Assembly (NCBI GenBank): GCA_946803585.1
Contig: CAMPEQ010000007.1
Span: 30,451 to 94,450 of the forward strand
Origin: an uncultured Actinomycetes bacterium
GTDB taxonomy: Bacteria; Actinomycetota; Actinomycetes; S36-B12; UBA10799
Length of the DNA stretch: 64,000 bases
Direction of reading: 5' to 3'
The notes beneath the pieces were generated by a model. The model saw only the letters and a program-made list of their open reading frames with translations, ran no database searches and was not told the origin of the DNA. This document shows, piece after piece, positions 11,478 to 31,580 of this stretch. Within the stretch, counting starts at the first letter, position 1, and the number at the start of each line of letters is the position of its first letter. The position numbers and the translations under genes are program-made.

Positions 11478-12187
11478 CAACGACCACAGCCTTGGCCCTG
11501 CGGGTTCCCTCGGCTAGGGGCGCGGCGAATGGCCGCAATATTGGGCGGTTGCTGTTTCGAGGCCTGTATCGGCTCGATGTTCGCGGGGCTGAGCATGTTC
11601 CGCCACACGGTCGAGTGATCGTGGCGTGTAACCACATTGGTCTGCTCGACGGTGGTCTGCTGTTTAGCGCAGCGCCTCGGCCGTTGAACATCGTGGCAAA
11701 GTCCGAACTGTTCCAACCGCCACTCGATCGCCTTCTGCATAGTTCGGGCCAGATCCCGGTTGAGTACGAGGCGCCTGATCGCGCCGCAGTTCGCTCCGCA
11801 CTGGGGGTCCTCGAACGCGGTGGTGGCCTCGGGATCTTTCCTGAGGCGCATCGAGGGATTGGCGACTTTGGTCGGGCCCGGAACGGAATCGCCTACCTGC
11901 ACAGTCGAACAAATGCGCCAATAGTGCCCGCAGCAATGTTTGGCACACGCGAAACGGGAATGGGCAAGAACGATTTGCCCAAACTGCGCTCTCAGCTGAC
12001 GGTGGTCTTTGGTGAGCCGTTCTCTGTTGCGCCATACGGCGATATCGATCGACGATCGACACTGGCCGCTATGGGGGAATCAATCCGGCAAAAGCTAGCC
12101 GACCATTTGCAATACGCACTGGACCTCACCGGTGAGCAACTTCCAACAGACGACGTCTCAATCGGGGCAAAAGGAGTAACTCCATGA
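11474..12187 (+). CDS. 1-acyl-sn-glycerol-3-phosphate acyltransferase-like
   Basis: HX4D motif NHIGLLDG and FPEAHRG motif. ATGA overlaps with both neighbours. Confidence 0.85.
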
Positions 12188-13653
12188 GTTCCGAGGATTT
12201 CGTCGAGGACGAAGAGTCAGTTGCGACCTTTGATGTCGATGGAGATCAGGATGATCTCGCTGCGGCAGAGGCTGCAGCCCTCGCCGAGTTCGGTGACGAG
12301 GATGTTGTCGAGGATCTTGCGGTCGTGCCCGAGGAGATGCTTCCGGTCGCGGCAATCGTGGGCCGTCCAAACGTCGGCAAGTCAACCTTGGTCAATCGAA
12401 TCCTTGGCCGACGCGCTGCCGTCGTTGAAGATATTCCTGGCGTCACGCGCGATCGTGTTCGCTACGAGGCGGAGTGGGCCGGAACCAAGTTCTGGTTGGT
12501 CGATACCGGCGGGTGGGACCTGCGCAGTCAGGGCATGGCCTCACAGGTCAGCGAGCAGGCACGACGGGCCGCAATCGACGCCGATGTTGTGGTTCTCGTC
12601 GTCGACGCAACCGTTGGCATTACCGACGGAGATGCCGAAGCCGTCAAAATGTTACGCAAGAGCGGCACCCCGGTGCTCCTTGTCGCGAACAAGGTTGACT
12701 CCGCGCTGCTGGAGAGCGAAGCGGCAGCGCTTTGGTCCCTCGGCGCCGGCGAGCCGATATGCGTGTCCGCTCTTCACGGTCGAGGAAGCGGCGACCTACT
12801 CGAAGCACTGGTCAATACCTTCCCTGAAGAAGGCTCCGGGAAGGCAAGCGAAGAAGGTCCTCCCCGTGTTGCCTTACTCGGACGACCAAACGTCGGCAAG
12901 TCGAGTCTGTTGAACAAGCTGGCCGGCTCCCAGCGCTCAGTCGTTGATTCCGTGGCCGGAACCACCGTGGACCCGGTCGATGAGCTTGTCGAAATTGCTG
13001 GCCAAACCTGGCGCTTCGTGGACACGGCAGGGATCCGGCGCCGGGTTAAGACCGCAAGCGGCCCGGAGTGGTTTGCCAGCCTGCGCACCCAGACGGCGCT
13101 AGAACGTTCCGAAGTGTGCCTGGTGTTGTTCGATGCGAGCGAAGAGCTCAGCGAGCAAGACGTGCGCATTGTGTCCAAAGTGGTGGACTCCGGTCGGGCT
13201 CTAGTGTTGGTCATGAACAAGTGGGACCTCGTTGATGAGGACCGGCGGTACATGCTCGATCGGGAATACGACCGTGATCTACACCATGTGGACTGGGCTC
13301 CGCGAGTGAATATCTCGGCGAATACTGGTCGGCATCTGGACCGTCTTGCGGTGGCACTTGATGCCGCGCTCGATGGCTGGCAGACGCGAGTCTCAACCGG
13401 TCGTCTCAACCAGTTCCTTAAAGAGATCGTCGCGGCACATCCTCATCCGATCCGTGGTGGCAAGCAGCCGCGGATTCTTTTTGGAACTCAAGCCAGCGTC
13501 GCGCCGCCTACTTTTGTTCTCTTTACGACGGGATTTCTCGAGGCAAACTACCGTCGCTTCATCGAGCGACGCCTGCGTGAGGAGTTTGGATTCGAGGGCA
13601 GTCCGGTTCGGGTAGACATGCGAATCCGAGCCAAGCGCAAACGTCGAAAGTAG
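12184..13653 (+). CDS. der: Ribosome-associated GTPase Der (EngA)
   Basis: Two GTPase domains ([17 protein letters not shown] and [17 protein letters not shown]) plus a KH-like C-terminus. Acidic N-terminal extension of ~55 aa. Confidence 0.95.
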
Positions 13654-13681: not shown

Positions 13682-13755
<74 letters not shown>

Positions 13756-13771
13756 CAGGTGTTTTAGCAGG

Positions 13772-13820
13772 TGAGAGGCTATTTCCTAATTCGGGAGATG
13801 GCCTCTCATTCTGTTTCTGT
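13772..13820 (+). terminator. Putative intrinsic terminator after der/tRNA-Pro
   Basis: Hairpin TGAGAGGC..TTTCC-taattcg-GGAGA..GCCTCTCA (8 bp, 2x2 internal loop, 5 bp) followed by the T-rich TTCTGTTTCTGT. Confidence 0.45.
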
Positions 13821-14014
13821 CCAAACCCTGTCCAAACACGCAGTAACCGGTGGCGTGAACGGGCCGTCAGATCCCGCCCAGCAGCGGGGCTGTTTCGTGA
13901 TCGATCCTGGCGAGGTGCACACGAACCCGCGAGAAGGGTTACTGCCTTGTGCGTCCCATCAGGGCTTGAGTGAGGCTCTCTCAGTGCCGCGGGCTATACA
14001 AACTGGGCGCGACG

Positions 14015-14605
14015 CTATGGCGAACCTGTGCGCGACCTGACGCCCGCGGGTGGGCTGCTCACCGGGCAACTGCAGCGATTGGCAGGACAAGCACAAGCCG
14101 TCGCCTTCACTAGTTTGAGCTGCGGCGTACCGAGACCGGCTGTTGAGTTTGGAAGCTCGGTCAACGCAGTGTCACACCAGCCGACCAGATTTGGGACATC
14201 GATAGAGTAGGGGGAGTCTGCGCTGTGTGGGGCGATGTTGGAACGAGCGCGCCGCAAAACTGCTTCTGCCCCCGCCGTATTGCCGCGCTTAGCGTGGGTG
14301 ATTGCAACCGCGATCTGTGCGAGTCCCTGCCAAAGGCTACGTTCTGTGGCTGGGGCCGACTTCCAGGCAAACTCGAGTACTTCGTGAGCTTGGAACGGGC
14401 GTCCATGACGCAGTAGGTCCTGCGCAAGGTCAAGAGCCTCTTCGGGTTGGAGGTCGATGACTTCAGGTAGAGGATCGACTCCGACTGCGTCTCGGGCAAG
14501 CGGTCGACCAAGTTCATCTCTTGGCCGGGAGCTGAGTGGACGTCCATTGACGTCTCTGTCACGGTCCACTCGGTAGCTCACTTTCGCTCCTAGTTGTCGC
14601 CCCAT
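14015..14605 (-). CDS. DUF309-domain protein
   Basis: The core FQAHEVLEFAWKSAP...WQGLAQIAVAITHAKRGNTAGA matches the DUF309 signature. The C-terminus is Cys-rich (CACPANRCSCP). Confidence 0.7.
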   Translation of the reverse strand: MGRQLGAKVSYRVDRDRDVNGRPLSSRPRDELGRPLARDAVGVDPLPEVIDLQPEEALDLAQDLLRHGRPFQAHEVLEFAWKSAPATERSLWQGLAQIAVAITHAKRGNTAGAEAVLRRARSNIAPHSADSPYSIDVPNLVGWCDTALTELPNSTAGLGTPQLKLVKATACACPANRCSCPVSSPPAGVRSRTGSP

Positions 14606-14805
14606 TTATTGGGCAGGAAGAGGCTGGCGACGCGATTAATCCATCTCAGGATATGTCAATCTCAGAGGTATCGCAGGTATCGCGCTCGGACGGCATCATC
14701 ACTTGCTGAACCTAATCCGGCGCCTTCCTGGTTGTTGCTGCAACATGCGCCATCCGGCCCTTCGTTGGTGATGACTGGCGGGCGCAAGCGCCCTGCGCGC
14801 TCGAG

Positions 14806-15552
14806 CTATCGATATTCGGGGTTGGGGTAGTCGAATCTGCAGCCTGCGTCCCACTCAGACCTCTGGTTACCGTGAGCGGGCAACCCACCAGAACTCTTGA
14901 GCAGGTTCGCCATATGCATGAGGTTCCAGGTCATGAACGTCGTGTTGCGGTTGGTGAAGTCGTTGTCTAGTCCGCCACCGGGGGAGTCCAGGTAGGACGG
15001 TCCGGGGCCCGCCTCGCCGATCCAACCGGCATCGGCCTGCGGCGGGATCGTGTAGCCGACGTGCTGGAGTGCGTACAGGATTCCCATGGCGCAGTGTTTG
15101 ATCCCGTCTTCGTTTCCGGTCACCAGGCATCCACCGACTTTGCCGTAGAAGGCGTATTGGCCTTCGGTGTTGAGGTTGCCCGATTCTCCGTAGAGGCGCT
15201 CGATCAGTTGGGTGGCGACACTGGACTTTTCTCCGAGCCAGATGGGGGTTCCGACGACCAGAATGTCGGCTTCCTTCACAACCTGGTACATCTGCGGCCA
15301 GTCATCGACGTCCCACCCGTGATCGGTCATGTCCGGGTAGACACCCGTAGCGATCTGGTGGTCAATAGCTCGGTATTCGCTGACCTCAACCCCGTTTGCT
15401 TTCATGATTGCGATTGAGCGATCCATCAGTGCCTGGGTATTCGATACCGACGGCGAACGCTTCAACGTGCAGTTGATGTACACCGCTGTCAAGTTCGAGT
15501 AGTCGCCGGGGAAAGTGCTGCAAAGCTGCTCATCGCGCTCAGAAACGCTCAT
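14806..15552 (-). CDS. Flavodoxin-like NAD(P)H-dependent FMN reductase family protein
   Basis: NCTLKRSPSVSNT...ADILVVGTPIWLGEKSS...GNEDG is typical of the flavodoxin-like fold reductases. ATG 15552 is preceded by GGAGG. The ORF-track start 15714 runs into the DUF427 gene. Confidence 0.8.
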   Translation of the reverse strand: MSVSERDEQLCSTFPGDYSNLTAVYINCTLKRSPSVSNTQALMDRSIAIMKANGVEVSEYRAIDHQIATGVYPDMTDHGWDVDDWPQMYQVVKEADILVVGTPIWLGEKSSVATQLIERLYGESGNLNTEGQYAFYGKVGGCLVTGNEDGIKHCAMGILYALQHVGYTIPPQADAGWIGEAGPGPSYLDSPGGGLDNDFTNRNTTFMTWNLMHMANLLKSSGGLPAHGNQRSEWDAGCRFDYPNPEYR

Positions 15553-15592
15553 TGAAACCTCCAAAATAGGGACTCTCTCCACGACTGGGTCG

Positions 15593-15883
15593 TCATGGCG
15601 ATTGGACGATCTGAATGACCGGTGAGAACGCAACGTGGTCACGAATGCCACGAATCCAGATCGGTGGGTGCGGGTAGAACCAGGCGACGTTCTTGACTTG
15701 TTCGCCGTCAACATTGAGGTGGTAGTAGGACGCGAGACCCTTCCAGTAACAGGGAGTGCGGAGGCGGGATGTTTCCAGCAGATTTTGATTCACCGCGTCA
15801 GGCGGGAAGTAGTGGTTGCCTTCCACAACACGGGTCGCGTCAGCCTCGGCGAGGACTGTGTCATTCCAGACTGCACGGATCAA
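15593..15883 (-). CDS. DUF427-domain protein
   Basis: 96 aa with VVEGNHYFPPDAV...RTPCYWKGLASYYHL...NVAWFYPHP (DUF427 pattern). TTG start with GGAGG 5 nt upstream. Confidence 0.8.
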   Translation of the reverse strand: MIRAVWNDTVLAEADATRVVEGNHYFPPDAVNQNLLETSRLRTPCYWKGLASYYHLNVDGEQVKNVAWFYPHPPIWIRGIRDHVAFSPVIQIVQSP

Positions 15884-15924
15884 GGCGCCTCCATATAGTG
15901 AATGTCAGGTCGGGCTGCTAGTTG

Positions 15925-15953
15925 CGAAACCCAGGTGGGGCGGCGTTCATTCC
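15925..15953 (-). promoter_or_regulatory. Candidate ECF-type promoter (tGGAAT-N18-GTTTCG) in front of the DUF427/FMN-reductase genes
   Basis: On the minus strand, GGAAT sits at 15953-15949 and overlaps the anti-sigma stop codon. An 18-nt spacer separates it from GTTTCG at 15930-15925, 41 nt upstream of the DUF427 TTG. The same motif occurs at three other sites nearby. Confidence 0.5.
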
Positions 15954-16234
15954 ATCTCTTGGGTGAGGTTTCGGCCGAAGTCGACGAGGTCGGCTACGGC
16001 TTGGGAATCTGCTGGTTCACTGAACTGCGTCGCCAGGCTTTCCTTGATTGCCCGGTATGTTTCGGCCTCTAATCCGCAGCGTTTACACGCCTCGAGGTGA
16101 CGCAGCACGCGGGTGTGGGTTTGTTCATCCGTTTGACCGTCTAGGACGGATTGCAGTAGTCGCGTTGCCTCCCGGCAGCTTGCGACATCTTTGTCACCGA
16201 CGAGGCGACGCCACATGGACAGTTGACTAGTCAT
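15947..16234 (-). CDS. Zinc-associated anti-sigma factor (ZAS, RsrA/RshA-like), cytoplasmic
   Basis: 95 aa with no TM segment. HxxxCxxC motif (RHLEACKRCG) plus an upstream Cys (VASCREA). 4-nt overlap with the sigma gene. Confidence 0.8.
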   Translation of the reverse strand: MTSQLSMWRRLVGDKDVASCREATRLLQSVLDGQTDEQTHTRVLRHLEACKRCGLEAETYRAIKESLATQFSEPADSQAVADLVDFGRNLTQEME

Positions 16235-16782
16235 GACGGGATCCCTTCATGGAGTGCGGTCCGTTTGGCCACCACGCGGTCACGAATCTTTCGCCGAGCC
16301 CGGTGAAGTCTGCTCATCACGGTTCCTTCCGGAATCCCTAGGTAGGCGGCAGCCTCGGCGTAGGACAACCCATCAATATCGACGAGGACTATGACCTGGC
16401 GAGAGTCCTCGGATACTTCGGATAAGGCGGCGGCTACGACGTCATCTAGCTCTGTACGCATCACATGGTCCTCGGCTGAGAGTCCTTCGTCGGCATGTCG
16501 TTCGCGGGTAGTGTTTTCGGTTAGGTCAATCGGTTCAGGGCGCCGACGGCGGTGATTGTTGTAGTTGGCGTTGCGCATGATGGTGAGCAGCCACGACCGT
16601 GGGTGTCTCCCATCGAAGGTGTCCAGCGAACGCCACGCACGCAACAGCGTGTCCTGAACAAGGTCGCTAGCGTCAGCCGGTTGCGCCGTTAACGACTGTG
16701 CCACCCGAAGGAGGACCGGGACTTCTGGCAATACATCCCGTTCGAAGACCGCTCGAGCGTCACGTCGTTGAGGTTGTCCCAC
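16231..16782 (-). CDS. ECF (sigma-70 family group 4) RNA polymerase sigma factor
   Basis: 183 aa. Region 2 has DASDLVQDTLLRAWRS. Region 4 has LSYAEAAAYLGIPEGTVMSRLHRARRKIR. GTG start. Confidence 0.9.
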   Translation of the reverse strand: MGQPQRRDARAVFERDVLPEVPVLLRVAQSLTAQPADASDLVQDTLLRAWRSLDTFDGRHPRSWLLTIMRNANYNNHRRRRPEPIDLTENTTRERHADEGLSAEDHVMRTELDDVVAAALSEVSEDSRQVIVLVDIDGLSYAEAAAYLGIPEGTVMSRLHRARRKIRDRVVAKRTALHEGIPS

Positions 16783-16787
16783 CTAGA

Positions 16788-16818
16788 GGAAACCCGGTAG
16801 CCATATGCCCGTATTCCC
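16788..16818 (-). promoter_or_regulatory. Candidate autoregulatory ECF promoter (GGGAAT-N19-GTTTCC) of the sigma gene, probably leaderless
   Basis: On the minus strand, GGGAAT is at 16818-16813 and GTTTCC at 16793-16788. The GTT core ends 8 nt before the GTG start at 16782. Confidence 0.55.
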
Positions 16819-16861
16819 AAACTGAGGATCCCATTTCCGAGGGAGAATTTCTTTCAGAGTT

Positions 16862-16892
16862 GGGAAGGTTCGGCGGCGTCCGGGGGGTTTCC
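16862..16892 (+). promoter_or_regulatory. Candidate ECF promoter (GGGAAG-N19-GTTTCC) for the Met-rich membrane protein / ccdA / tlpA unit
   Basis: On the plus strand, GGGAAG is at 16862-16867 and GTTTCC at 16887-16892, ~50 nt before ATG 16944. It mirrors the motif on the other strand. Confidence 0.55.
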
Positions 16893-16943
16893 AGCCCAGA
16901 ACGACATGACCACCCACGCCAACAAGAGGAGACACACGACAGC

Positions 16944-17411
16944 ATGGCAAACACAACAACAGTCGCACCCAAAACGACATCGACCACAACCGAGACAAGC
17001 ATCGGCCAAGCGGCTATCTACGGCGCGCTCGGCGGCATCGTTGGGGGCATGGTCTTCGGAATGATGATGAGCATGCTCGGCATGATCGAAACGATCGCGA
17101 TGCTCGTGGGCAGCGAAGCGCTCATCGTCGGGTGGGCAGCACATATGGCCATATCCGTCTTTATCGGCGCAACCTTTGGAGTGATTGCAAGGGCTCAGCT
17201 CACCAGTTGGGGAACAGGTATCGGGATTGGCGTTGCCTACGGCATGTTCTGGTGGGTGCTCGGGGCCCTCGTTCTGATGCCAGCAAGACTAGGTATGCCC
17301 GTTTTTCAATTCAACACGATGGCGTGGCAGAGCCTGATGGGGCATATGGTCTTTGGGCTCGTCATGGGTGCGGGCGCTGTAGCACTGGCCCGTCAATCCA
17401 GTAGGAACTAG
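16944..17411 (+). CDS. Methionine-rich small integral membrane protein (about 4 TM), function unknown
   Basis: ATG 16944 is preceded by AAGAGGAG. 155 aa with 16 Met by my count (GMVFGMMMSMLGMIETIAML...). The ORF-track start 16698 lies inside the sigma gene region. Confidence 0.7.
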   Translation: MANTTTVAPKTTSTTTETSIGQAAIYGALGGIVGGMVFGMMMSMLGMIETIAMLVGSEALIVGWAAHMAISVFIGATFGVIARAQLTSWGTGIGIGVAYGMFWWVLGALVLMPARLGMPVFQFNTMAWQSLMGHMVFGLVMGAGAVALARQSSRN

Positions 17412-17431
17412 CTCCTTGCGTCCTTGACCGA

Positions 17432-17483
17432 GAGCAGGTGTGTTGAACCGCTACCCGACGTAGTGGGTTCAACACACCTGCTC
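17432..17483. repeat. Perfect 18-bp inverted repeat (hairpin, 16-nt loop) between the membrane-protein gene and ccdA
   Basis: GAGCAGGTGTGTTGAACC (17432-17449) and GGTTCAACACACCTGCTC (17466-17483). There is no U-tract downstream. Confidence 0.8.
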
Positions 17484-17540
17484 GCTATGACGGTCCGGGA
17501 CCTACTGCTCTGTTACTCAACGTTGCCCGATGGGGAATCG

Positions 17541-18464
17541 ATGGAAATTGCTGTTCTCACAACTGCTCTGACTGCTGGGATGTTGGCCGCCTTCAATCCG
17601 TGCGGTTTCGCGCTACTGCCCGGTTACCTTGCACTATTTCTCAGCGATTCGACGAATCAACGTCCTGGTAGCGCGGTCCGCCGCAGCCTACGGGTGAGTG
17701 CATCCATGACTGCCGGGTTTATTGCCGTCTTCACATTCGTCGGGCTGCTGATCTCGGCGCTGTCTTGGCAGATCACCGCGTACACCCCCTACTTAACCTT
17801 GGCAGTCGGGCCAGTTCTCGTGGTGCTAGGAATGTACCTACTTTCTGGTCGCGATTTGAAGTTCGGGATTCCTCGGATGAAAGGACGCGTTGGGTCCTCG
17901 GCGGCCGGAATGTTCATGTATGGCATGACATACGCGATCGTTTCACTGTCGTGCACATTGCCGATCTTCCTCGTCGCTGTCGTCGGGGCCACGCGGACCT
18001 CGAGCTTCGCAGCCGGACTCTTCACCGTTGTGGTGTACGGCCTGGGCATGGGCCTGGTCATCACCGCGTTGACCTTCGCTGTCGCACTGGCTCGTGACGG
18101 CTTTGTCGCAGGTAGTCGAAGGATGGTCCGCTACGTTAACCGCATTTCCGGTGCCCTCCTCGTGCTGGCAGGTGCCTACCTCGCGTGGTACGGCTTCGCG
18201 GAAGTACAGGTCCTGCGTGGAGACTCCGAGGCAAGCTTGCCTGAGATTGGTGGCCAGATAGCGGCCACCTTCACATCGATAATCGACCAAGAGAACCTGT
18301 TCGTCGTTGTCGCGGGGGCGCTGACCATTATCGGTACCTGCGCAGTCGCCATCATTTTGATTAACCGTCGTAACAGCAAGCAATTACCTTCATCAAATCC
18401 AGACGATCTCGCACCAGAGACTGCGCTGGACGAATCACAAACCTCCCAGTTAGGACAGTCATGA
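17541..18464 (+). CDS. ccdA: Cytochrome c biogenesis protein CcdA / DsbD-family thiol-disulfide transporter
   Basis: Conserved membrane cysteines in AAFNPCGFALLPGYL and VSLSCTLPIF, with a multi-TM profile. I placed the start at ATG 17541, downstream of the hairpin. Confidence 0.85.
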   Translation: MEIAVLTTALTAGMLAAFNPCGFALLPGYLALFLSDSTNQRPGSAVRRSLRVSASMTAGFIAVFTFVGLLISALSWQITAYTPYLTLAVGPVLVVLGMYLLSGRDLKFGIPRMKGRVGSSAAGMFMYGMTYAIVSLSCTLPIFLVAVVGATRTSSFAAGLFTVVVYGLGMGLVITALTFAVALARDGFVAGSRRMVRYVNRISGALLVLAGAYLAWYGFAEVQVLRGDSEASLPEIGGQIAATFTSIIDQENLFVVVAGALTIIGTCAVAIILINRRNSKQLPSSNPDDLAPETALDESQTSQLGQS

Positions 18465-19042
18465 GAATCAGTGCGCGTCAACTTTCGATCACAGCGGCCC
18501 TCACACTTGCCGGAGTGGGACTTGCGGCGTGTGCAGGGGCTACCGATGCCCAGGTGTCGCCTCAGCCGCCGATCCCGACCGTGACCGCGCCCTCGCCGGT
18601 TGCCCCGGCAGCTCCGCAGTCCGCTGTGCCTGCTGCGCAAGCGATCTTGCCTGCTGTCACGGTTCGCGAGGTGAACAGCGGCAATTCTGTTGATCTTGCC
18701 TCGCTCACCGAGGCTGGGACTCCGACGCTGGTCTGGGCGTGGGCGCCTCACTGCCCGTACTGCAACGCCGAGGCACCCAAGTTGCAGAAGTTCGCGAGTG
18801 AAAACGTCGGCAAAATCAACGTTGTCGGTGTCGGAACACAGGATAGCTTTGGCCAGGCCGAAGACTTCGTAGCCAAACATGACCTGACCACGCCCACCAT
18901 GGTGTGGGACGAGAGCTTCGAGTCATGGACGACCATGGGGATTACTTCCATGCCGACGTGGATCCTGATAGGGGCAGACGGAGAACTCGTACTGCGTCAC
19001 TCTGGGCAGTTCCCGGAATCAGACATCGCTTCGCAAATCTAA
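18461..19042 (+). CDS. TlpA/ResA-like thioredoxin-fold lipoprotein (thiol-disulfide oxidoreductase)
   Basis: Lipobox LAGVGLAAC and CxxC active site WAPHCPYC. ATGA overlap with ccdA. Confidence 0.85.
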   Translation: MRISARQLSITAALTLAGVGLAACAGATDAQVSPQPPIPTVTAPSPVAPAAPQSAVPAAQAILPAVTVREVNSGNSVDLASLTEAGTPTLVWAWAPHCPYCNAEAPKLQKFASENVGKINVVGVGTQDSFGQAEDFVAKHDLTTPTMVWDESFESWTTMGITSMPTWILIGADGELVLRHSGQFPESDIASQI

Positions 19043-19098
19043 GCCTAGAACGAGACAGCAGGCATTGGTCGTGCAATCCAACCCAGGTCGCTGCGTGT

Positions 19099-19127
19099 GG
19101 AAGGAATCAGTCAGTCACCGGGTTTCC
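19099..19127 (+). promoter_or_regulatory. Candidate ECF promoter (tGGAAG-N18-GTTTCC) in front of the mycoredoxin gene
   Basis: GGAAG at 19099-19103, an 18-nt spacer, GTTTCC at 19122-19127, ~90 nt upstream of ATG 19219. Confidence 0.5.
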
Positions 19128-19218
19128 CTGGGGAATCGGAATCATATTCCGCCGCTACCCGCGGTATTGAAGACACGCTGCAGAACCTCAACTAGTCCAC
19201 GTCGGAAAGGCGCCACCA

Positions 19219-19473
19219 ATGAACCCTCAGCTCACTGTGTACTCAACGCGATGGTGCGGGTACTGCCTCCGTCTCAAATACCAACTAAAACGAGCGGGCA
19301 TTCCGTACACCGAGATCGACATTAACAAGGACCCTGCTGCTGCCGCCGCGGTTGAACGATTCAACGGAGGTAACCGAACTGTGCCGACGGTGGTTTTGGC
19401 TGATGGCACTGCCCTGACCAACCCGTCGCTGGCCGATCTCCAGCGAGCGCTTTCTTCCGACGCTCGTGGCTGA
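19219..19473 (+). CDS. Mycoredoxin / glutaredoxin-like protein
   Basis: 84 aa. The N-terminal TVYSTRWCGYCLRLK (CGYC) and the RTVPTVVL motif are typical of mycoredoxin-type glutaredoxins. Confidence 0.85.
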   Translation: MNPQLTVYSTRWCGYCLRLKYQLKRAGIPYTEIDINKDPAAAAAVERFNGGNRTVPTVVLADGTALTNPSLADLQRALSSDARG

Positions 19474-19500
19474 GGACATCCGAAATCGGACGGCTCGGTC

Positions 19501-20865
19501 GTGACAGATAGTCCAGATCTGCTGGTCATTGGCGGTGGCACGGCCGGGCTTTCCGCTGCACGAACTGCTCGACGGTTCGGGCGCTCGGTGGTGATGGTGA
19601 CGGACGGAGAACCGGGCGGAGATTGCACATTCACGGGCTGTGTTCCGTCGAAGACGTTGCTCGCTAGCGGGCGCCTGCCGTTTGCTGAGGCGATCAGCCG
19701 CGTGCACGCCACTGTTGACGAGATCGCCGCAACAGAGAACTCTGATGTGCTTCGGGCCGAAGGTATTGACGTAGTTGTTGGGCGTGCAGACGCGCGTGCG
19801 CGGGATTGCGTTGAGGTTGATGGTCGTGTGCTTACGCCAGAGTCGTTGGTCATCGCCACAGGTAGTGGTCCGGTAATACCGCCGATTCTCGGGATTCGCG
19901 ATGTCGCCTATCTGACGAACGAGAACCTGTTCGAGCTCACGGAACTACCTGAGCATCTGCTAGTCGTGGGTGGCGGAGCAATCGGGGTCGAAATGGCTCA
20001 GGCATTTATCCGCCTTGGCTCGCGAGTGACTATCCTTGAAGCCGGTGCCAGGCTGATTGGCAAGGAAGAGCCTGAAGCATCCGCTGTTGTTGGCGAGGTG
20101 CTGGGCCGTGACGGAGTTGACGTGTATCTGGACACCACCATCTCCGAAGTTGCCCGAACGGGGACGGTGATTACGGCCACGACTAGCAGAGGCGACATCC
20201 ACGCCAGCCACCTGCTTGTCGCCGCTGGACGTCAAGCCCGGGCCTGCGGGTGTGACGCTTTAGGGATAGTCCGCAGTGAGCGTGGTGCAATCAGGGTGGA
20301 CGCGCGGATGCGCACCAGTGTTGCTGGGGTGTACGCGGCCGGTGACGTGACTGGGCGCTTGGCGTTCACTCACGCCGCCGATGAGATGGGACGGGTGGCG
20401 GCCACTAACGCGCTACGTAAACTCCCGCTTCGATTCAAGGAACACGCTATTCCGTGGGTGACCTTCACCAGTCCAGAAGTGGCTCGTGTCGGTCTGACGG
20501 AAAGCCAAGCAGCTCAGCACACTCGCGGTGCCCGCGTCGTCGAACTTCCAATGGCAGACGTCGATCGCGCCCGAACGTCCGGACACACCGACGGGTTCAT
20601 CAAAATCATCGTCGGCCCACGAACGATCTTGCGTAACGCCGGTGGAGGCAGGGTGCTCGGAGCCACGATCGTCGCTGATCGAGCTGGCGAAATGATCGCC
20701 GAACTTGCCCTTGCTATCCGAACAACCATGTTCACCGGGAGACTGGCCCAATCGTCCCATGCCTATCCCACCTGGTCAGTCGGCGTGCAGCAAACTGTCG
20801 GCCAGATTTTTGGGGTTGGTGACCGTAAACCGCGGCCCGCCCGAAAGGAGTTCCACCGTGCCTGA
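19501..20865 (+). CDS. FAD-dependent pyridine nucleotide-disulfide oxidoreductase (glutathione/mycothione reductase-like)
   Basis: GGGTAG FAD motif, redox-active GGDCTFTGCVPSK, second Rossmann motif VVGGGAIGVEMAQ, and a C-terminal dimerisation domain with HAYPTWS. Confidence 0.9.
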   Translation: MTDSPDLLVIGGGTAGLSAARTARRFGRSVVMVTDGEPGGDCTFTGCVPSKTLLASGRLPFAEAISRVHATVDEIAATENSDVLRAEGIDVVVGRADARARDCVEVDGRVLTPESLVIATGSGPVIPPILGIRDVAYLTNENLFELTELPEHLLVVGGGAIGVEMAQAFIRLGSRVTILEAGARLIGKEEPEASAVVGEVLGRDGVDVYLDTTISEVARTGTVITATTSRGDIHASHLLVAAGRQARACGCDALGIVRSERGAIRVDARMRTSVAGVYAAGDVTGRLAFTHAADEMGRVAATNALRKLPLRFKEHAIPWVTFTSPEVARVGLTESQAAQHTRGARVVELPMADVDRARTSGHTDGFIKIIVGPRTILRNAGGGRVLGATIVADRAGEMIAELALAIRTTMFTGRLAQSSHAYPTWSVGVQQTVGQIFGVGDRKPRPARKEFHRA

Positions 20866-21736
20866 CCAGGTGACGCGCATTGTCGTCGATTCCGGCGCGC
20901 AAATGACGCCCGTGCTGCGCGAACGGTTCAAAGCAGAGGTGGTTCCGGTCGGTATCGTGGTCGACGGAGTGGCCTACAGCGAGGGCGAGGATATCGACCT
21001 CGCGAAGATCAGCGAAGTGCTCGCGCGAGGTGCCACGGTCAGCACCTCGACACCGAGCCCCGGAGACTTCCTCCGAGCATATGAGCGCTGCGCCCGAGAC
21101 GGGGCGACCCAGATCTTGTCGGTGCATACCGGCGGCACGCTGTCGTCCACGGCCAGTACCGCGCGGCTGGCTGCCGCCTCTGCTGAGATTCCAGTAGTCG
21201 TCGTTGATACCGGCACCGCCTCATTCCCGGTGACGATGAGCGCGTGGAGTGCTGCGGACGCATTGGCTGCCGGTGCCACTCTGAAACGGGCAATGACAAT
21301 CGCAATGGCTACTGCTGCGGCCATCGATAGCGTCTTCATTTTGGGTGCGCCTGAGCTTGCTGCCCGCGGGGGGCGTCTCATCGATCGCGATGCAATCGAA
21401 GGGACAGCGGTCGTCGCGTTCACTGACGGCGAGATGAAGGTCGTTGGTCATGTCAAAAGTCCCGAAGACGCGATCGCTGCCATGGCGGACTATGTTCAAG
21501 CGCGGAGCGACGGTGAGCTCCTACGAATCGGAGTGGGTCACATTGGTGCCTCCGAGTTGGCCGCCACCTTGGCCGACGTGCTGGAATCCCGGCAAAGGGT
21601 TGAGAACCTCGTTCACTACGACATCGGTCCTTCTATCGCAGTCCACACCGGACTAGGAACAGTCGGCTGCGTCTTTCACAAGAGCCAGCCCATTCAGGGC
21701 ACCTTCACGGTGCCGGTACGCGAGAATCTCCTCTAG
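20858..21736 (+). CDS. DegV-family fatty-acid-binding protein (FakB-like)
   Basis: IVVDSGAQM... with a DegV-like length and profile. GTG 20858 is preceded by AAAGGAG and overlaps the upstream stop by 8 nt. Confidence 0.8.
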   Translation: MPDQVTRIVVDSGAQMTPVLRERFKAEVVPVGIVVDGVAYSEGEDIDLAKISEVLARGATVSTSTPSPGDFLRAYERCARDGATQILSVHTGGTLSSTASTARLAAASAEIPVVVVDTGTASFPVTMSAWSAADALAAGATLKRAMTIAMATAAAIDSVFILGAPELAARGGRLIDRDAIEGTAVVAFTDGEMKVVGHVKSPEDAIAAMADYVQARSDGELLRIGVGHIGASELAATLADVLESRQRVENLVHYDIGPSIAVHTGLGTVGCVFHKSQPIQGTFTVPVRENLL

Positions 21737-21762
21737 ACATCCGAAGCCGCTTGAATCGTTGT

Positions 21763-22470
21763 ATGAAGGGATCCATGAACGGCACGAGCGTTGCGCGCCT
21801 TCGCCTAGATCGCCATGCTGCAGGGCCTGCTGTTCTGCTTAGAATCGCAACCGTTGCCGGGGGATACTTGCTGGGCTCGCTACCCGCTGCAGATGGCGTT
21901 AGTGCGATCGCCGGTGCGAATATTCGTGCGTCCGGAACAGGGAATCCTGGCGCGCTCAACACCGCAGTCGTCGCGGGGAAGCGCTGGGCGAGCGTTGTCG
22001 CAGGACTAGACATCAGCAAAGGCTGGTTGGCGTCGGCGATCGGGGCACACGTCTCACCCGCGACCGCCAATGCCGCCGGTGTCGCCGCCGTCGTCGGCCA
22101 CATATTTCCTATTTGGTCTGGCGGGCGCGGGGGTAAGGGTGTGGCGACGTCTTTCGGGGTGGTGCTGGGAACCTTTCCTGCCTACGCGGTCCCCGACCTC
22201 GCGATCGCCGCGGCTTTCGCGAAAGCCACGGCCAACCCAGTGCGTGCGAATCAGTTGGCAAGTGCGGCCTGGACGGGGGCAGCCACGCTTTGGTGGTGGC
22301 GAGCGTGGCCCAATCTGTGGGGGCCGAGGCCGACGATCGCGCTGCCGTTGAGCGCACTGTTAACCAGCGTCCTGTTGGCATGGCGAATGAATCAGCCCGA
22401 CTCAGTCAGTGGCGGCGACCGTTGGGCGAAGGCAACGTTTGGTTGTCCGCAATCGAACGGACCGTCATGA
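21763..22470 (+). CDS. plsY: Glycerol-3-phosphate acyltransferase PlsY (acyl-phosphate dependent)
   Basis: GYLLGSLP, IRASGTGNPGALNT and SGGRGGKGVATSFG motifs. The start is ambiguous (TTG 21751, ATG 21763 or ATG 21775). Confidence 0.85.
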   Translation: MKGSMNGTSVARLRLDRHAAGPAVLLRIATVAGGYLLGSLPAADGVSAIAGANIRASGTGNPGALNTAVVAGKRWASVVAGLDISKGWLASAIGAHVSPATANAAGVAAVVGHIFPIWSGGRGGKGVATSFGVVLGTFPAYAVPDLAIAAAFAKATANPVRANQLASAAWTGAATLWWWRAWPNLWGPRPTIALPLSALLTSVLLAWRMNQPDSVSGGDRWAKATFGCPQSNGPS

Positions 22471-23699
22471 AGTGGGCAGTTATCGGCGCCGGCTATAGCG
22501 GCATCGCCGCCGCCGCTGCGATGCTGGCAGAGGGAATCGACGTCGATGTGCTGGATAAGCGCGCTGATGTTGGAGGTCTGTGGCTAGACGGTGTCTATCC
22601 CTCAGTCCGGTTGATCACCACAAAGGACCGCAGCGCCTACCCGGATCGGCCGATGGCCAGCTCCGGAGTCTTTCCGTCGAGCACCGAGATGCTGACGTAC
22701 CTGCACGACGTTGCAGTTGACGCCGGTGTGCGCGACCGCCTCATCAATCGCGATGTCAGTTCCGTGACTCCAACTGGGGACCACTGGGATGTTGACGGGG
22801 AACGATACGCCGGGGTAGTGCTGGCCACCGGATTGTTTAGTGAGCCACACCTTCCTCATTTACCCGGCGATTCGACAATCCCGTCCCTACATACAAGTGC
22901 ATACCGAACCGTAGGGGACCTTGGCGACAATGTCCTCGTCGTGGGGATGGGGAACTCGGGGGCTGATGTCGCCCACGACTGTGTTAAGGCGGGAAAGCGC
23001 GTCACCATCGCAGTTCGGCGCGGGCGCCACATCATACCCAAGCGAATCCTCGGTCGACCTGTCGTCGATATGGAGCGGCCCCGGTTTCTACCAGACTTGG
23101 CGACCCGGGTCGCAATGGATCTATCCGCCAGAACTATCTCAGCGTTCTGGCGACGTGGGCGCCTGGCCAAGCCACGCCATCTTTTTCTCGCGGAAACACC
23201 GGTCATCCATTCAGCGCTCCTCCCGCTCATTAGCAACGGCTCCATCGTGGTTCGTCCGGGCGTCGCGCGCTTCGATGGACGGGTTGCGGAGTTCGCTGAT
23301 GGATCATCAGAACGCTTCGACACCATTGTCTGGGCAACTGGCTACCGCTATGACCTGCCCGTAGATCGCCGACTCGTCGATGGCTCGACTGCTGGCTACG
23401 GGGCTTCTGGACTGTCACTTGTTGGCGGCGTGTGGTCGCCGATCACGCCTGGTCTCGCCTGTGTTGGCTATCGGGAACCTCGCAACGGTCGCGGTCCCTA
23501 TCTGCACGCTGCAGCCGGCCTGACCGCTGCCGGTGCTCGCGCTCAAAGCCAGACACTCGAACCGATCGGTGCGCTGCTAGCTGAAACTGCCGCGCCAACC
23601 GCGAAGACCCTCATTGACGACGGCCCCGAAATTCGCCGCGTTCAACGGCTCACGGATGCGGCGAGAACAATCGCTGCCTCACCGCCAAAGCGGGGTTGA
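22467..23699 (+). CDS. Flavin-containing monooxygenase-like NAD(P)/FAD-dependent oxidoreductase
   Basis: Two dinucleotide motifs (VIGAGYSGIAAA...DVGGLW and VVGMGNSGADVA). ATGA overlap with plsY. The ORF-track start 22290 lies inside plsY. Confidence 0.8.
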   Translation: MKWAVIGAGYSGIAAAAAMLAEGIDVDVLDKRADVGGLWLDGVYPSVRLITTKDRSAYPDRPMASSGVFPSSTEMLTYLHDVAVDAGVRDRLINRDVSSVTPTGDHWDVDGERYAGVVLATGLFSEPHLPHLPGDSTIPSLHTSAYRTVGDLGDNVLVVGMGNSGADVAHDCVKAGKRVTIAVRRGRHIIPKRILGRPVVDMERPRFLPDLATRVAMDLSARTISAFWRRGRLAKPRHLFLAETPVIHSALLPLISNGSIVVRPGVARFDGRVAEFADGSSERFDTIVWATGYRYDLPVDRRLVDGSTAGYGASGLSLVGGVWSPITPGLACVGYREPRNGRGPYLHAAAGLTAAGARAQSQTLEPIGALLAETAAPTAKTLIDDGPEIRRVQRLTDAARTIAASPPKRG

Positions 23700-23937
23700 G
23701 TTCGCTCCGAATCCGAATCGCGGACTGGGCAAGGCGACACCCATCGAATTCGAGGCGCTACATAAAGCCGCACTCGCGGCATTGTCAAGAAGTCGACCAC
23801 GAGTCAACGAAGGCCTGGGCAGACCCGTCAGAGATTCGTCTGCTCGCATGAGCAGTGGATTGGCCCGGAGGAGGGAATTCTTTAGACTCCATGGCGTAGG
23901 GAAGCGCAGTTTCAGAATCGAACGGCGGCGGTCCGGC

Positions 23938-25056
23938 CTACTCGAACAAGACCTTCACGGGCAGCGAGTAGAAATCGCCGTAGCCATCGAAAGCACTATT
24001 TAGGCGCTGGACTTCGCCGGTAGTGGGCATCCATCCTCCGAGTGGTTGGACACGGATAGCGATCGACCGAGTATTCATCGTGCGCTTCCAGGTTGCTTTC
24101 ACTGCGCCATCGATCACGACGGTGCTCCGGAACACCCCGTTGCCTCCCGGGATCACGGCGGCCATGACGTCGCTATCAGCCATGAGGGTCCTAGTTTTGT
24201 AGCCGAGTAGGTATTCGTCGAATCCTGGCAGGATGTTCAGGTACGGCTCCGGATGCTTCGTCGGTTCCGTCGCGGGAAGTTGCTCGAGGAGTGCCGTTGG
24301 GCAGTGCATGAGAGTGTCATTGACTATGACGTCGGTCAGTTCTGAGCCGAGCGCCGCGAGAGCGGCCTTTGTATCGGCTGCCAGCAAGGACGTCCAGCCA
24401 GCAAAGTCCTTGCGGGTTGCGGGTCCGTGACTTCGGAAGAACCGCCTAGCTAATGTCTGGAGAGCCTCATTGCGATTCAGTTTCACTTGGGAAGGAAGCC
24501 ACCGCTCGGCGCTAGCGAATGTCTGTTGTTTGTCGATTTGTGGACCGATGACGATCGCCCCGGTTTGTGCCCCGTGCCAGAGGTAGTGGTACCCGCGCTG
24601 CCCACTAGTCTCCAGACCGGCCGAAGAGAGAACCTCGAGGCATTGAGATCTGGTGAGCAGTTCGTCATCCGTCAACGCATCGATAAGGGCCCGCCGTGCG
24701 GTATCGATCTGATGTTCGTCAATGCCGAGTTGCTCCCACCGCTTCGCCACTCCCTTCAGCGCCAGCGACCCCGTCAGTTCCAGCATCCAGGTCACATCTT
24801 TGGGTGGGACGAAGTGAATCGTGCCGCGCATCGGCCACGTTCGGATGATCTGGCGATCATGGGTGGCTTTATCCACGTCGGTGTCGCTGAGGTGGGGGAG
24901 GCGGGTGCCAAATGACCAGTGGCCTGAGGCGACATCCTGGGCCTGCATCGCACCAAACCACTCGACAACGCCCGCAGGATCAGTGAAGCTATGGTCGCGC
25001 AGTAAGAGCGCCCGTTGCCGAAGATTCAGCGCCTGTGTTTCGGTAAGTTGTTCCAC
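23938..25056 (-). CDS. Winged-helix HTH_42 (AlkZ/YcaQ family) DNA glycosylase-like protein
   Basis: LNLRQRALLL..., FGAMQAQDVASGHWSF and IIRTWPMRGTIHFVP are collinear with the crosslink-repair glycosylase family. The start is probably GTG 25056 or TTG 25059, just downstream of the SnoaL gene stop. The 25278 start in the ORF track overlaps that gene. Confidence 0.8.
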   Translation of the reverse strand: MEQLTETQALNLRQRALLLRDHSFTDPAGVVEWFGAMQAQDVASGHWSFGTRLPHLSDTDVDKATHDRQIIRTWPMRGTIHFVPPKDVTWMLELTGSLALKGVAKRWEQLGIDEHQIDTARRALIDALTDDELLTRSQCLEVLSSAGLETSGQRGYHYLWHGAQTGAIVIGPQIDKQQTFASAERWLPSQVKLNRNEALQTLARRFFRSHGPATRKDFAGWTSLLAADTKAALAALGSELTDVIVNDTLMHCPTALLEQLPATEPTKHPEPYLNILPGFDEYLLGYKTRTLMADSDVMAAVIPGGNGVFRSTVVIDGAVKATWKRTMNTRSIAIRVQPLGGWMPTTGEVQRLNSAFDGYGDFYSLPVKVLFE

Positions 25057-25108
25057 CAAATCAGGATAGATGTGAGATCCGGCTGTGGTGGGAAAGTTAC
25101 CGGTCGCT

Positions 25109-25492
25109 TCAGAACATCCCGTTCTCGTTCGCTGATGTATCCGGAATGACCTGAAGAACATCCCAGTGCTCGACGATCTTCCCCTGCTCATCGAAGCGGA
25201 AGATGTCAATCCCGGCATAGTCGTGGTCCCCGGGCCACTGCTGAAAGCAGTGCAACACGACGCAGTCGCCTTCGGCAATGGCTCGCTTCACCTCAACATG
25301 CTTGCCGGGCCATTCCTTGGCCATACGGTCGAAGTAGTCAACGAATGCCTCTTTACCGTCACCAACATCGGGGTTGTGTTGACGGTATTCGTTCCCGACG
25401 TACAGGTCCACTGCTTCCCGAGGTCGGCTCTCGTTGAACATCAGGTCGTAGAAGGCGATTGCGTTCTTCCTATTTTGCTCCAGGTCGGCCAT
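25109..25492 (-). CDS. SnoaL-like / NTF2-fold protein
   Basis: [14 protein letters not shown]...YRQHNP...VLHCFQ...[21 protein letters not shown] is typical of the SnoaL-like polyketide cyclase fold. ATG 25492. Confidence 0.8.
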
Positions 25493-25564
25493 TGGGTGCT
25501 CATCCCTTTCTAAGTCCATGGGTGGGTTATTCGGTGGCAAGTACTGGTAGAAAGGGCGGCGTTC

Positions 25565-26212
25565 CTAGACCCGGCCGGTCTCGTGGGCCCATATCGCAAC
25601 CTCGACACGGTTACGAGCGCCGAGCTTTCGCATGAGGCTGGCGAGGTGTGCTTTGACGGTACTTGGGGTGATGTAGAGCTCGCTTGCAATCTCGCTGTTC
25701 GTGCGACCTTGCGCGACCGGCAAGAGGACTTCTTCTTCGCGAGCGGTGAGCGGTTCTATCGGCTGCCTCGGTGGTGAGGTTTGGGCGTGGGCGAAGGTTG
25801 CCAGCAGTCGTACCGTCACGCTAGGGGCGATTAGTGCGTCACCGTCGGCGGCGGCGTGAATGGCTTGAGTCAGCAGAGTAGGTCCAGCATCTTTGAGTAG
25901 GAACCCACGGGCGCCTGCCTTAAGGGCTCCGTGAACATACTCGTCGAGGTCGAACGTGGTGATCACCACGATCGGCAGTGGGTCGGTGACATCGGGACCG
26001 GCAAGCAGGCGGGTGGCTTCGATGCCGTCCATAAGCGGCATTCGGATATCGAACAGCCCAACGTCGGGCCGTAACTGGTGGGCGAGGGAGACTGCTTCAC
26101 GCCCGTCAGCAGCAGCTCCGATGACCTCAATGTCGGGTTGGGCGTCGAGCAGCATCGTCAGTCCGGTGCGCACGATGGGCTGGTCGTCGGCGACCAGCAC
26201 CTTGATACTCAT
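25565..26212 (-). CDS. Two-component response regulator, NarL/LuxR family
   Basis: REC domain (VLVADDQPIVR...DVGLFDIRMP) plus a LuxR HTH (LTAREEEVLLPVAQGRTNSEIASELYITPSTVKAHL). Confidence 0.9.
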   Translation of the reverse strand: MSIKVLVADDQPIVRTGLTMLLDAQPDIEVIGAAADGREAVSLAHQLRPDVGLFDIRMPLMDGIEATRLLAGPDVTDPLPIVVITTFDLDEYVHGALKAGARGFLLKDAGPTLLTQAIHAAADGDALIAPSVTVRLLATFAHAQTSPPRQPIEPLTAREEEVLLPVAQGRTNSEIASELYITPSTVKAHLASLMRKLGARNRVEVAIWAHETGRV

Positions 26213-27357: not shown

Positions 27358-27518
27358 CAGGTCAGTCTAGGCAATCTTCGTGGTCGGCGTATTCACCAAA
27401 AGTACAAGAGATCAGGTATTCAAACGGTCAAGGCCAAAACCGGCTCCAGGCTGATGTGCCAAGCGCTGTCGCCCGTCAAAGTGGAGGTACCAACCCGATC
27501 ACAGCAAGGAGCAGTCCG

Positions 27519-27968
27519 ATGAGTAAGCCTGAAGGTCCGCCCAGTCCACTCGAGAACCTGCACGTCCCAGTGCAGCTGAAGCTCGCGGCAGCGTGGATCA
27601 GCTTCATGTTCCTCTATATTTACGTCGACTACCTATCCCTCTACAAGCCCGGATTCATCGATGAACTACTGGGCGGTACTGTCCATGAGTTCGACATCGG
27701 CCCAACCTTTGTTGCGATGGCGATCACGCTGATGGCTATTCCGATCCTGATGATCCTGCTCTCCACGACACTGCCAGCCCGCTTCAACAGGACTCTTAAC
27801 ATCGTCGTCGCAGCGCTCTATATCCCGGTCTCGATCTACAACGCGGCGGGGGAGTCCTGGAGTTACTCCTACTTCTATGGCCTATCAATTGGTCTCGAAG
27901 TACTGCTACTTGGCTTCATCTTGCGCTGCGCCTGGAGTTGGCCCCGAGGTAGCGCCAGGAGGAGCTAG
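27519..27968 (+). CDS. Small integral membrane protein (about 4 TM), divergent from the two-component system
   Basis: ATG 27519 is preceded by AAGGAG. 149 aa, with hydrophobic segments AAWISFMFLYIYV, FVAMAITLMAIPILMILL and others. Confidence 0.7.
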   Translation: MSKPEGPPSPLENLHVPVQLKLAAAWISFMFLYIYVDYLSLYKPGFIDELLGGTVHEFDIGPTFVAMAITLMAIPILMILLSTTLPARFNRTLNIVVAALYIPVSIYNAAGESWSYSYFYGLSIGLEVLLLGFILRCAWSWPRGSARRS

Positions 27969-28003
27969 CGCCAGAAGATGGAGAGGCTTAGGTGATGGCA
28001 GAC

Positions 28004-28039
28004 TCAGGTGTACCGAGCTATCGAACTCGGTACACCTGA
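28004..28039. terminator. Bidirectional hairpin between convergent genes
   Basis: 14-bp perfect stem TCAGGTGTACCGAG / CTCGGTACACCTGA with an 8-nt loop. The 3' arm overlaps the last codons of the Gly-rich gene. Confidence 0.6.
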
Positions 28040-31577: not shown

Positions 31578-31580
31578 TGG

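Follow-up and report, generated by a model that had tools for sequence, protein, structure and literature searches.

A probable native thiol-stress gene cluster with a putative SigH-paralogue regulon in a variable segment downstream of tRNA-Pro(GGG) of an uncultured Actinomycetes bacterium

The described systems closest to the regulatory pair reported here are SigR-RsrA of Streptomyces coelicolor and SigH-RshA of Mycobacterium and Corynebacterium, redox switches composed of an extracytoplasmic function (ECF) sigma factor and an anti-sigma factor of the zinc-associated type (ZAS). RsrA coordinates zinc by C11, H37, C41 and C44, the N-terminal Cys being required for the oxidative release of sigma (PMC4960319), and for SigH a promoter consensus GGAAY-N18/19-GTT was published (PMC5430705). 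We analysed a stretch of 64,000 nucleotides, in the following called the window, from an uncultured Actinomycetes bacterium (NCBI GenBank assembly GCA_946803585.1, contig CAMPEQ010000007.1, positions 30,451 to 94,450). Within this window an earlier note, made from the DNA letters, had flagged a 10-kb block of thiol-redox and lipid genes (13,756 to 23,699) directly behind tRNA-Pro(GGG) as a possibly old, domesticated island with a sigma factor and a regulon of its own. Judged by sequence, the sigma/anti-sigma pair of this block belongs to the known SigH/RsrA-type class of ECF-ZAS redox switches.

We favour a reading, to which we assign a probability of roughly 0.6, in which the block is a native thiol-stress cluster within a 22-kb mosaic, was likely moved by insertion sequence (IS) recombination and has its own regulon governed by a SigH paralogue. 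Coordinates of all features are compiled in Table 1.

The interposed segment downstream of tRNA-Pro(GGG)

We compared the window with a der-anchored sample of 91 loci, comprising 80 loci from species-representative genomes and 11 from closer relatives obtained by protein look-ups, and counted the adjacency of pgsA in the 52 loci having at least 9 kb downstream of der. In 39 of these 52 loci, covering several orders, pgsA-gcvH-FHA(GarA-like)-MerR lies within 2-225 bp downstream of der or der-tRNA-Pro. The window contains the conserved run recN-pyrG-nudix-xerD-scpA-scpB-rluB-CM-PDH-cmk-plsC-der, closed by tRNA-Pro(GGG) as described before and confirmed here by ARAGORN and Rfam; since this tRNA is found at the same place directly 3' of der in many lineages among the der loci compared, it represents an ancestral neighbour of der. 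Between the der end and the pgsA start there are 23.3 kb in the window, whereas L165 has 7.7 kb and L168 has 3.7 kb (L plus number being our handles for the loci compared), and the ancestral synteny resumes in correct orientation at 36 kb. The interruption of conserved synteny at tRNA-Pro stated in the earlier note is real, as the 39 of 52 loci show, but it extends to ~36,072 and does not end at 23,699. The interposed segment (~13,838-36,072, ~22 kb) is a mosaic about double the size of the flagged block, which does not form a 10-kb unit but the mosaic's first module.

These counts also decide on the possibility that the arrangement is ancestral, i.e. that the block always followed der-tRNA-Pro and was lost by deletion in the relatives. 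This is largely refuted by the direct der-(tRNA)-pgsA adjacency across several orders; moreover, none of the 91 der loci has a block gene downstream of der, the relatives bearing the cluster keep it elsewhere and an IS scar lies at the block's edge. The native composition of the block and a DUF427-reductase-FMN_red cluster located in Actinobacteria bacterium YIM 96077 within ~10 kb of the scpAB...der run would agree with an ancestral arrangement, which we regard as very improbable all the same.

At the left side, blastn homology between the window and L161 (der 91%, 74% nucleotide identity) spans the tRNA, its terminator-like hairpin and two direct copies of TGTCCAAAC, ending at ~13,838. The left junction is positioned beyond the terminator and the conserved repeat and not within the tRNA, the segment beginning 80 nt past the tRNA. 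The short duplicated repeat noticed earlier does exist; its conservation in L161 assigns it to the flank of the tRNA, and it is no scar of the block. We rejected it as an attachment (att) scar because it is placed ahead of the breakpoint in L161 and has no partner anywhere else in the window. A second candidate boundary, a tRNA-Pro(CGG) called by ARAGORN at 14461-14532 (+), was rejected as well, being antisense within DUF309, not being found by Rfam at gathering threshold and very likely being a false positive.

What follows der and tRNA-Pro in the relatives, a comparison the earlier note had proposed, is in no case the block: they show either the ancestral pgsA order or other cargo, and every relative with a der 80-91% identical has a different one. 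L161-163 (der 91%) carry small hypotheticals and then Fe-S/Suf genes, L164 (81%) an IS256-type transposase and then chromate transporters, L165/166 (80%) methyltransferase, MPAB and peptidase genes ahead of pgsA, L168 (81%) MPAB and IS605 TnpB ahead of pgsA, and L169-171 (80%) a cassette of HTH_17 and Prim-Pol, L170 additionally possessing an intact IS3 directly after tRNA-Pro. In each relative the tRNA is followed by a terminator hairpin of its own and the cargo begins past this hairpin. The variety of cargo among such relatives, including IS256, IS3, IS605 and Prim-Pol, shows the site being a plasticity hotspot. The HTH_17/Prim-Pol/small-hypothetical cassette is shared by three sibling metagenome-assembled genomes (L169 11882-15842, L170 5455-9415, L171 4917-8878) and resembles a small integrative or satellite element, with no visible integrase and no tRNA-end duplication.

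The right edge of the block is marked by the remnant of an IS3-family element. The C-terminus of the transposase of the intact L170 IS3, RALGKLTPVEFETLYTAAAAA, and the translated window at 23719-23781, RGLGKATPIEFEALHKAALAA, are identical in 14 of 21 residues. The local score of 70 compares to 41.8 +/- 3.2 in 60 shuffles (maximum 50), real control DNA (0.96 Mb) scored no higher than 49, and the similarity to the L170 IS3 runs on at the DNA level through the terminal inverted repeat to ~23,827. The possible transposase-tail remnant reported before is real and of the IS3 family. Pfam and a plasmid tblastn search returned no match for the tail, which was confirmed by the L170 comparison alone, and the window contains no second IS3 end or intact transposase open reading frame (ORF), leaving a solo remnant. 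As the scar begins 18 nt past the stop codon of the last block gene, encoding a flavin-containing monooxygenase (FMO), the right boundary of the block is a genuine seam at which modules 1 and 2 of the mosaic meet.

The rival closest to the earlier proposal is that a classical integrase-borne island entered the 3' end of tRNA-Pro long ago, its composition having ameliorated and integrase and att sites having been lost since. It would account for a segment placed 80 nt past a tRNA and splitting conserved synteny, for siblings in which this site is occupied by IS elements and the Prim-Pol/HTH_17 cassette and for the IS3 scar at the block edge. We consider it unlikely, since the hallmarks of integration are missing where they were looked for. 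Pfam detected no integrase or excisionase among the ORFs of 13.8-36 kb, the sole tyrosine recombinase match in the window being the housekeeping XerD (5501-6577). k-mer and blastn-short searches of the 64 kb with the tRNA and its 3' flank, aimed at an attR remnant, yielded no copy of at least 11 nt and chance 8-10-mers only. The earlier observation that integrase and a second tRNA 3' end are absent is borne out by these results. Flanking repeats in 13.6-36.2 kb were limited to imperfect chance pairs, none of them credible, and a duplication of the tRNA 3' end was seen in none of the seven relatives checked. Probes with the relatives' IS256, TnpB, Prim-Pol and HTH_17 revealed no remnant in the window, the IS3 tail being the sole exception. 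Furthermore, the junction lies past the terminator and the conserved repeat.

Composition speaks against such an island as well, the GC and codon profiles suggested in the earlier note not distinguishing the block from the remainder of the window. GC stays level over the window (0.58-0.63), and the tetranucleotide distance of 5-kb windows of the block to the rest reaches z = 0.2-1.1, with upstream core segments reaching 2.2. For curated genes, the synonymous-codon log-likelihood is -1.201 in the block vs -1.204 in the rest (p = 0.42) and the GC content at third codon positions 0.649 vs 0.651 (p = 0.63).

Orthologous clusters were identified elsewhere by a metagenome scan with the disulfide reductase (DSR) of the block and by later look-ups. 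L082/L083 have promoter-DUF427-memb-CcdA on one strand, memb being the Met-rich membrane protein, and promoter-ECF-antisigma-DSR-DegV-PlsY on the other (58-77% amino acid identity); L167 has the same set, partly fragmented; L081/L174/L175 have DSR-DegV-PlsY-4HBT-FMO. All these clusters are located in neighbourhoods unrelated to der. In relatives the gene cluster occupies core-genome contexts, and in L174 the reductase operon lies 3 kb from the canonical sigH-rshA adjoining aroA and rsgA. The presence of orthologous clusters elsewhere in related genomes gives the genes the appearance of being native, not foreign, to the lineage. Identity ladders for sigma (100/92/86/76/73/69/~60%) and reductase (100/77/66/57%) run parallel to that of der (100/91/81/75%), as vertical descent predicts. 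With no integrase or att site in window and relatives, native composition and orthologous clusters elsewhere, the interpretation as a classical tRNA-integrated island is not supported.

Some of these clusters have features of their own. In L174/L175 the SigH/RsrA-equivalog pair is found at 6054-7081 and the DSR-DegV-PlsY-4HBT-FMO operon 3 kb downstream at 10001-14594, with an IS200/IS605 pair (Y1_Tnp and TnpB) 2.5 kb past FMO. The cluster of L167 (GCA_038906695.1, 9500-16300) looks decayed, ECF, PlsY and FMO matching in fragments or several frames and a Fic-domain gene being inserted between DegV and mycoredoxin, which could reflect pseudogenisation or an assembly error. In L173 (YIM 96077, CP033729.1) a cluster of DUF427, reductase paralogue, reductase, ADH, FMN_red and MarR (4326-9076) is situated ~3 kb upstream of parA-scpA-scpB-rluB-CM, the conserved run leading to der, with no ECF gene or motif nearby.

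A chimeric contig, joined at the tRNA or the IS scar, is the least probable explanation and can almost be dismissed. tRNAs and IS elements are typical misassembly sites, and the contig of the nearest species representative, L001 (JBLHZE010000061.1, der 91-94%), stops within der, as would be expected if assembly broke off at the variable and repeat-prone DNA following the tRNA. Against this, three contigs, up to 565 kb long and stemming from two sources, carry the same reductase and sigma proteins, the composition does not shift at the junctions, synteny resumes at 36 kb in correct orientation and the IS remnant, a degenerate solo scar of 110 bp, is too short and diverged to mislead an assembler.

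The sigma/anti-sigma pair and the promoter motifs of the block

The sigma factor scores 105.5 bits with the SigH/SigR equivalog model TIGR02947, below the cut-off of 251.55, and finds its best PDB match in SigH of Mycobacterium tuberculosis (89 bits). The start of the anti-sigma gene overlaps the stop of the sigma gene by 4 nt; its product reaches 28.3 bits with the RsrA model TIGR03988 (cut-off 62.5), and a PDB search with it gave no meaningful match. In L174 the canonical pair passes both cut-offs, with 322 bits for SigH and 82.2 bits for the RsrA equivalog, and the window sigma factor is 32% identical to this SigH. As L174 has a true SigH-RshA, the window pair is a paralogue and not an orthologue. 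The sigma family extends to cultured Streptomyces (60% identity).

The zinc ligands of the anti-sigma factor are arranged as C-x25-H-x3-C-x2-C, which equals the ligand spacing of RsrA. Among 29 distinct homologues of 89-107 amino acids, H46, C50 and C53 are conserved in all 29 and C20 in 27, suggesting that the protein acts as an RsrA-like zinc/thiol switch.

The 64 kb hold four sites of the motif GGAA-N17/18-GGGTTTC compared to 0.03 expected, all of them lying within the block and in correct orientation upstream of transcription units (Table 1). The motif fits the SigH consensus and adds an extended -10 element. The sigma operon itself is preceded by one of the sites, placed so close to the start codon that its transcript is predicted to be leaderless or nearly so. 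For the four promoters, transcripts are predicted to start ~6-8 nt past GGGTTTC, near 15919, 16782, 16898 and 19133. The pattern being derived from the window, we checked it in DNA independent of the latter: 136 sites are present in 81 reductase loci (0.79 Mb), compared to 4.6 +/- 1.6 in dinucleotide shuffles, an enrichment of ~30-fold, whereas 86 der loci (1.39 Mb) contain a single site vs ~8 expected. For 115 distinct motif sites the gene downstream is a reductase homologue in 21 cases, an ECF sigma gene in 13, DUF427 in eight and mycoredoxin in six. Four promoters in cis and the enrichment in independent loci thus support the suggestion made before that the block would have its own sigma factor and regulon.

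Gene content of the block and its neighbours

Table 1. Features of the interposed segment and its anchors in the window.
Feature	Coordinates	Strand	Evidence and remarks
der (EngA)	12184..13653	+	Left anchor; ORF; tblastn match in all 91 der loci
tRNA-Pro(GGG)	13682..13756	+	ARAGORN; Rfam 63.7 bits
Terminator-like hairpin 3' of tRNA	13770..13810	+	18-bp stem and T-rich tail; kept in L161
TGTCCAAAC x2 direct repeat	13818..13838	+	Marks left junction of interposed segment
DUF309	14015..14605	-	Pfam PF03745, 73 bits; true start possibly 14497
Flavodoxin-like NADPH-dependent FMN reductase	14806..15552	-	Pfam PF03358, 36.4 bits
DUF427	15593..15883	-	Pfam PF04248, 94 bits; recurrent regulon member
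SigH-type promoter, DUF427 and FMN reductase	15926..15953	-	GGAATGAACGCCGCCCCACCTGGGTTTC
Soluble ZAS anti-sigma factor, 95 amino acids	15947..16234	-	Pfam zf-HC2; ligands C20, H46, C50, C53
ECF sigma factor, SigH paralogue	16231..16782	-	Pfam sigma-70 regions 2 and 4
Autoregulatory SigH-type promoter, sigma operon	16789..16817	-	GGAATACGGGCATATGGCTACCGGGTTTC; ends 6 nt ahead of GTG start
Divergent SigH-type promoter, memb-ccdA-tlpA	16863..16891	+	GGAAGGTTCGGCGGCGTCCGGGGGGTTTC
Met-rich membrane protein (memb)	16944..17411	+	No Pfam family; adjoins CcdA in L082, L083, L167
Hairpin between memb and ccdA	17432..17483	+	Perfect 18-nt arms; 23-bp; RNA dG -62 kcal/mol, z = -5.7
CcdA/DsbD-type membrane thiol-disulfide transporter	17541..18464	+	Pfam DsbD_TM 24.3 bits, just under cut-off 27.1; Cys residues in NPCGF and LSCTLP
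TlpA/ResA-like secreted thioredoxin-fold lipoprotein, CPYC	18461..19042	+	Pfam Redoxin 52.4 bits; NCBIfam DsbE/ResA-like
SigH-type promoter, mrx-DSR-degV-plsY-FMO	19099..19126	+	GGAAGGAATCAGTCAGTCACCGGGTTTC
Mycoredoxin, CGYC site	19219..19473	+	TIGR02200 95.8 bits, cut-off 89.5 passed
Class-I flavoprotein disulfide reductase (DSR)	19501..20865	+	MerA/LipDH-like; CTFTGC redox centre
DegV/FakB-like fatty-acid-binding protein	20870..21736 (start approximate)	+	TIGR00762 161 bits, cut-off 99.7; FakB1 equivalog 55.7 bits, cut-off 350
PlsY-like acyl-phosphate:glycerol-3-phosphate acyltransferase	21751..22470	+	Pfam PF02660 110 bits; NCBIfam equivalog 86 bits, cut-off 137
FMO-like flavin-containing monooxygenase	22467..23699	+	Pfam 82 bits; start overlaps plsY stop by 4 nt; 78% identical to L081 orthologue
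IS3-family scar	23717..23827	+	Last 21 transposase codons and diverged terminal inverted repeat; ~110 bp
Module 2 of interposed segment	23938..35905		AlkZ-like glycosylase, SnoaL, LuxR response regulator and histidine kinase, DUF6326 (Pfam)
Module 2, remaining genes	within 23938..35905		Gly-rich protein, two Na+/H+ exchangers, carboxylesterase, GATase (Pfam)
Right anchor: hyp, pgsA (CDP-OH_P_transf), gcvH, FHA (GarA-like), MerR	36073..39311	+	53-84% amino acid identity to L165

All genes listed for the block in the earlier note are present according to Pfam and NCBIfam, but at the level of families the reductase is not of the Mtr type. It had been described as similar to glutathione reductase (GR) and mycothione reductase (Mtr), and it stays below the Mtr cut-offs with 175.5 bits for TIGR03452 (cut-off 635.65) and 189.7 bits for PRK07846 (cut-off 501). 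Its nearest families and structures are MerA cores (best PDB match 207 bits) and PRK06370-type oxidoreductases. The enzyme is no bona fide MerA either, scoring 346 bits, which is under the cut-off of 454, and ending in a C-terminus, GVGDRKPRPARKEFHRA, devoid of Cys, where MerA has the Cys pair that passes Hg(II) to the active site. Its position beside mycoredoxin under a SigH-type promoter hints at a thiol-disulfide and not at Hg(II) as its substrate. Protein P0180, encoded on a 77-kb ENA contig, is a 723-amino acid fusion of a disulfide reductase (62% identity) with a DegV domain, suggesting a functional link between reductase and DegV unless it is a gene-calling artefact.

The FMN reductase is probably co-transcribed with DUF427. 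For the hairpin separating memb from ccdA, possible roles are attenuation within the operon, transcript processing or protein binding to the palindrome. Near DegV-PlsY no FakA gene was seen.

Among the genes of module 2, Pfam identified none for mobility. Its 373-amino acid Gly-rich protein (28018-29139, -) matches the ALK/LTK glycine-rich domain PF12810, which is unusual in a bacterium. An 8-nt tandem repeat, CTCGGATG, is present in at least three to four copies in the intergenic region (29195-29224) that separates its gene from a small ORF located upstream of a Na+/H+ exchanger gene.

Proposed circuit and comparison with known systems

From the reading of the block as a relocated native cluster we propose the following sequence of events. 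The mosaic would have been built up in a permissive gap between the terminator of tRNA-Pro(GGG) and pgsA, splitting der-tRNA-Pro-pgsA-gcvH-garA-merR, and module 1 was most likely relocated or assembled via IS recombination, the IS3 scar marking its right edge, and not imported by an integrase. In the resting state the SigH-paralogue sigma factor would be held by the cytoplasmic zinc anti-sigma factor with its C-H-C-C ligands. Thiol oxidation may then lead to a disulfide involving Cys20 and thereby to the release of sigma, which would fire the four GGAA-N17/18-GGGTTTC promoters, amplifying its own sigma/anti-sigma operon. The cytoplasmic reductants induced, i.e. mycoredoxin, MerA-like disulfide reductase, FMN reductase and DUF427, would restore thiols; CcdA and the CPYC TlpA-like lipoprotein, together with the Met-rich membrane protein, may export reducing power, and the DegV-PlsY-FMO module is predicted to renew phospholipids. 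These functional assignments of regulon and enzymes rest on sequence.

Several observations weigh against this reading. The motif is of the general SigH type, so that canonical SigH and not the local paralogue could read the promoters, and the reductase operon of L081 has the motif, yet only canonical SigH nearby. Two reductase loci of cultured organisms (L172, L173) lack both sigma gene and motif, showing the sigma-reductase link not being universal. The nearest relative compared downstream of the tRNA has ~74% nucleotide identity, the timing and route of arrival thus being deduced, and the identity ladders, though parallel, lack a link to whole genomes. Just one IS end survives, from which an IS-mediated transfer is not reconstructable, and no IS trace was found at the left junction.

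Beyond the locus itself, we tentatively suggest, as a possibility open to considerable doubt, that the pair forms a second thiol-stress circuit in Actinobacteria, parallel to SigH-RshA. Its core regulon would consist of MerA-like reductase, mycoredoxin and DUF427 and provide a new way of low-molecular-weight-thiol/mycoredoxin recycling, wired in this lineage to CcdA/TlpA export and to phospholipid renewal from free fatty acids by DegV/PlsY. The sigma/ZAS pair is widespread, being present also in cultured Streptomyces, with Streptomyces cupreus among the cultured carriers, and has a recognisable motif and conserved targets (MerA-like reductase, mycoredoxin, DUF427), offering a testable entry to such a possible circuit and to the function of DUF427 and of this reductase subfamily. 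The locus furthermore is a clean example of a tRNA-adjacent gap in which insertion sequences and native operons moved from elsewhere accumulate with no integrase involved, and it cautions that not every block flanked by a tRNA is an island acquired horizontally.

Compared to known systems, the locus shares with tRNA-associated genomic islands its place 3' of a tRNA, the splitting of synteny, the varying content of the site and mobile genes or scars found there. It differs from them in having no integrase and no att duplication, in a junction located past the terminator, in its native composition and in the occurrence of cargo orthologues at other chromosomal places in relatives. The scar agrees with IS3-family insertion sequences in transposase end and inverted repeat, the second end and an intact ORF being absent here.

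The reductase has the FAD/NAD(P)H two-dinucleotide fold, the dimerisation domain and the CxxxxC centre of the MerA core and of dihydrolipoamide dehydrogenase (Lpd); unlike these, it lacks the C-terminal Cys pair and NmerA and stays below the cut-offs for MerA, Lpd, Mtr and GR. As in the CcdA-TlpA/ResA extracytoplasmic reducing pathway, a DsbD-type membrane protein with two Cys residues embedded in the membrane precedes a secreted lipoprotein that has a thioredoxin fold and a CxxC site. Here, in contrast, the genes are combined with an ECF stress promoter and an unclassified Met-rich membrane protein and show no ccsAB linkage.

With respect to SigR-RsrA and SigH-RshA, the window pair remains below the equivalog cut-offs, has an extended -10 element (GGGTTY) and core targets consisting of MerA-like reductase and DUF427 instead of the classical trxBA/mtr set, and its regulon is arranged largely in cis around the sigma gene. 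In common with these systems, the locus has a small soluble ZAS anti-sigma factor of the same ligand spacing that shares a transcript with an ECF sigma factor, an autoregulatory promoter of the GGAAY-N18/19-GTT type and a set of thiol-redox targets including mycoredoxin, disulfide reductase and flavin reductases.

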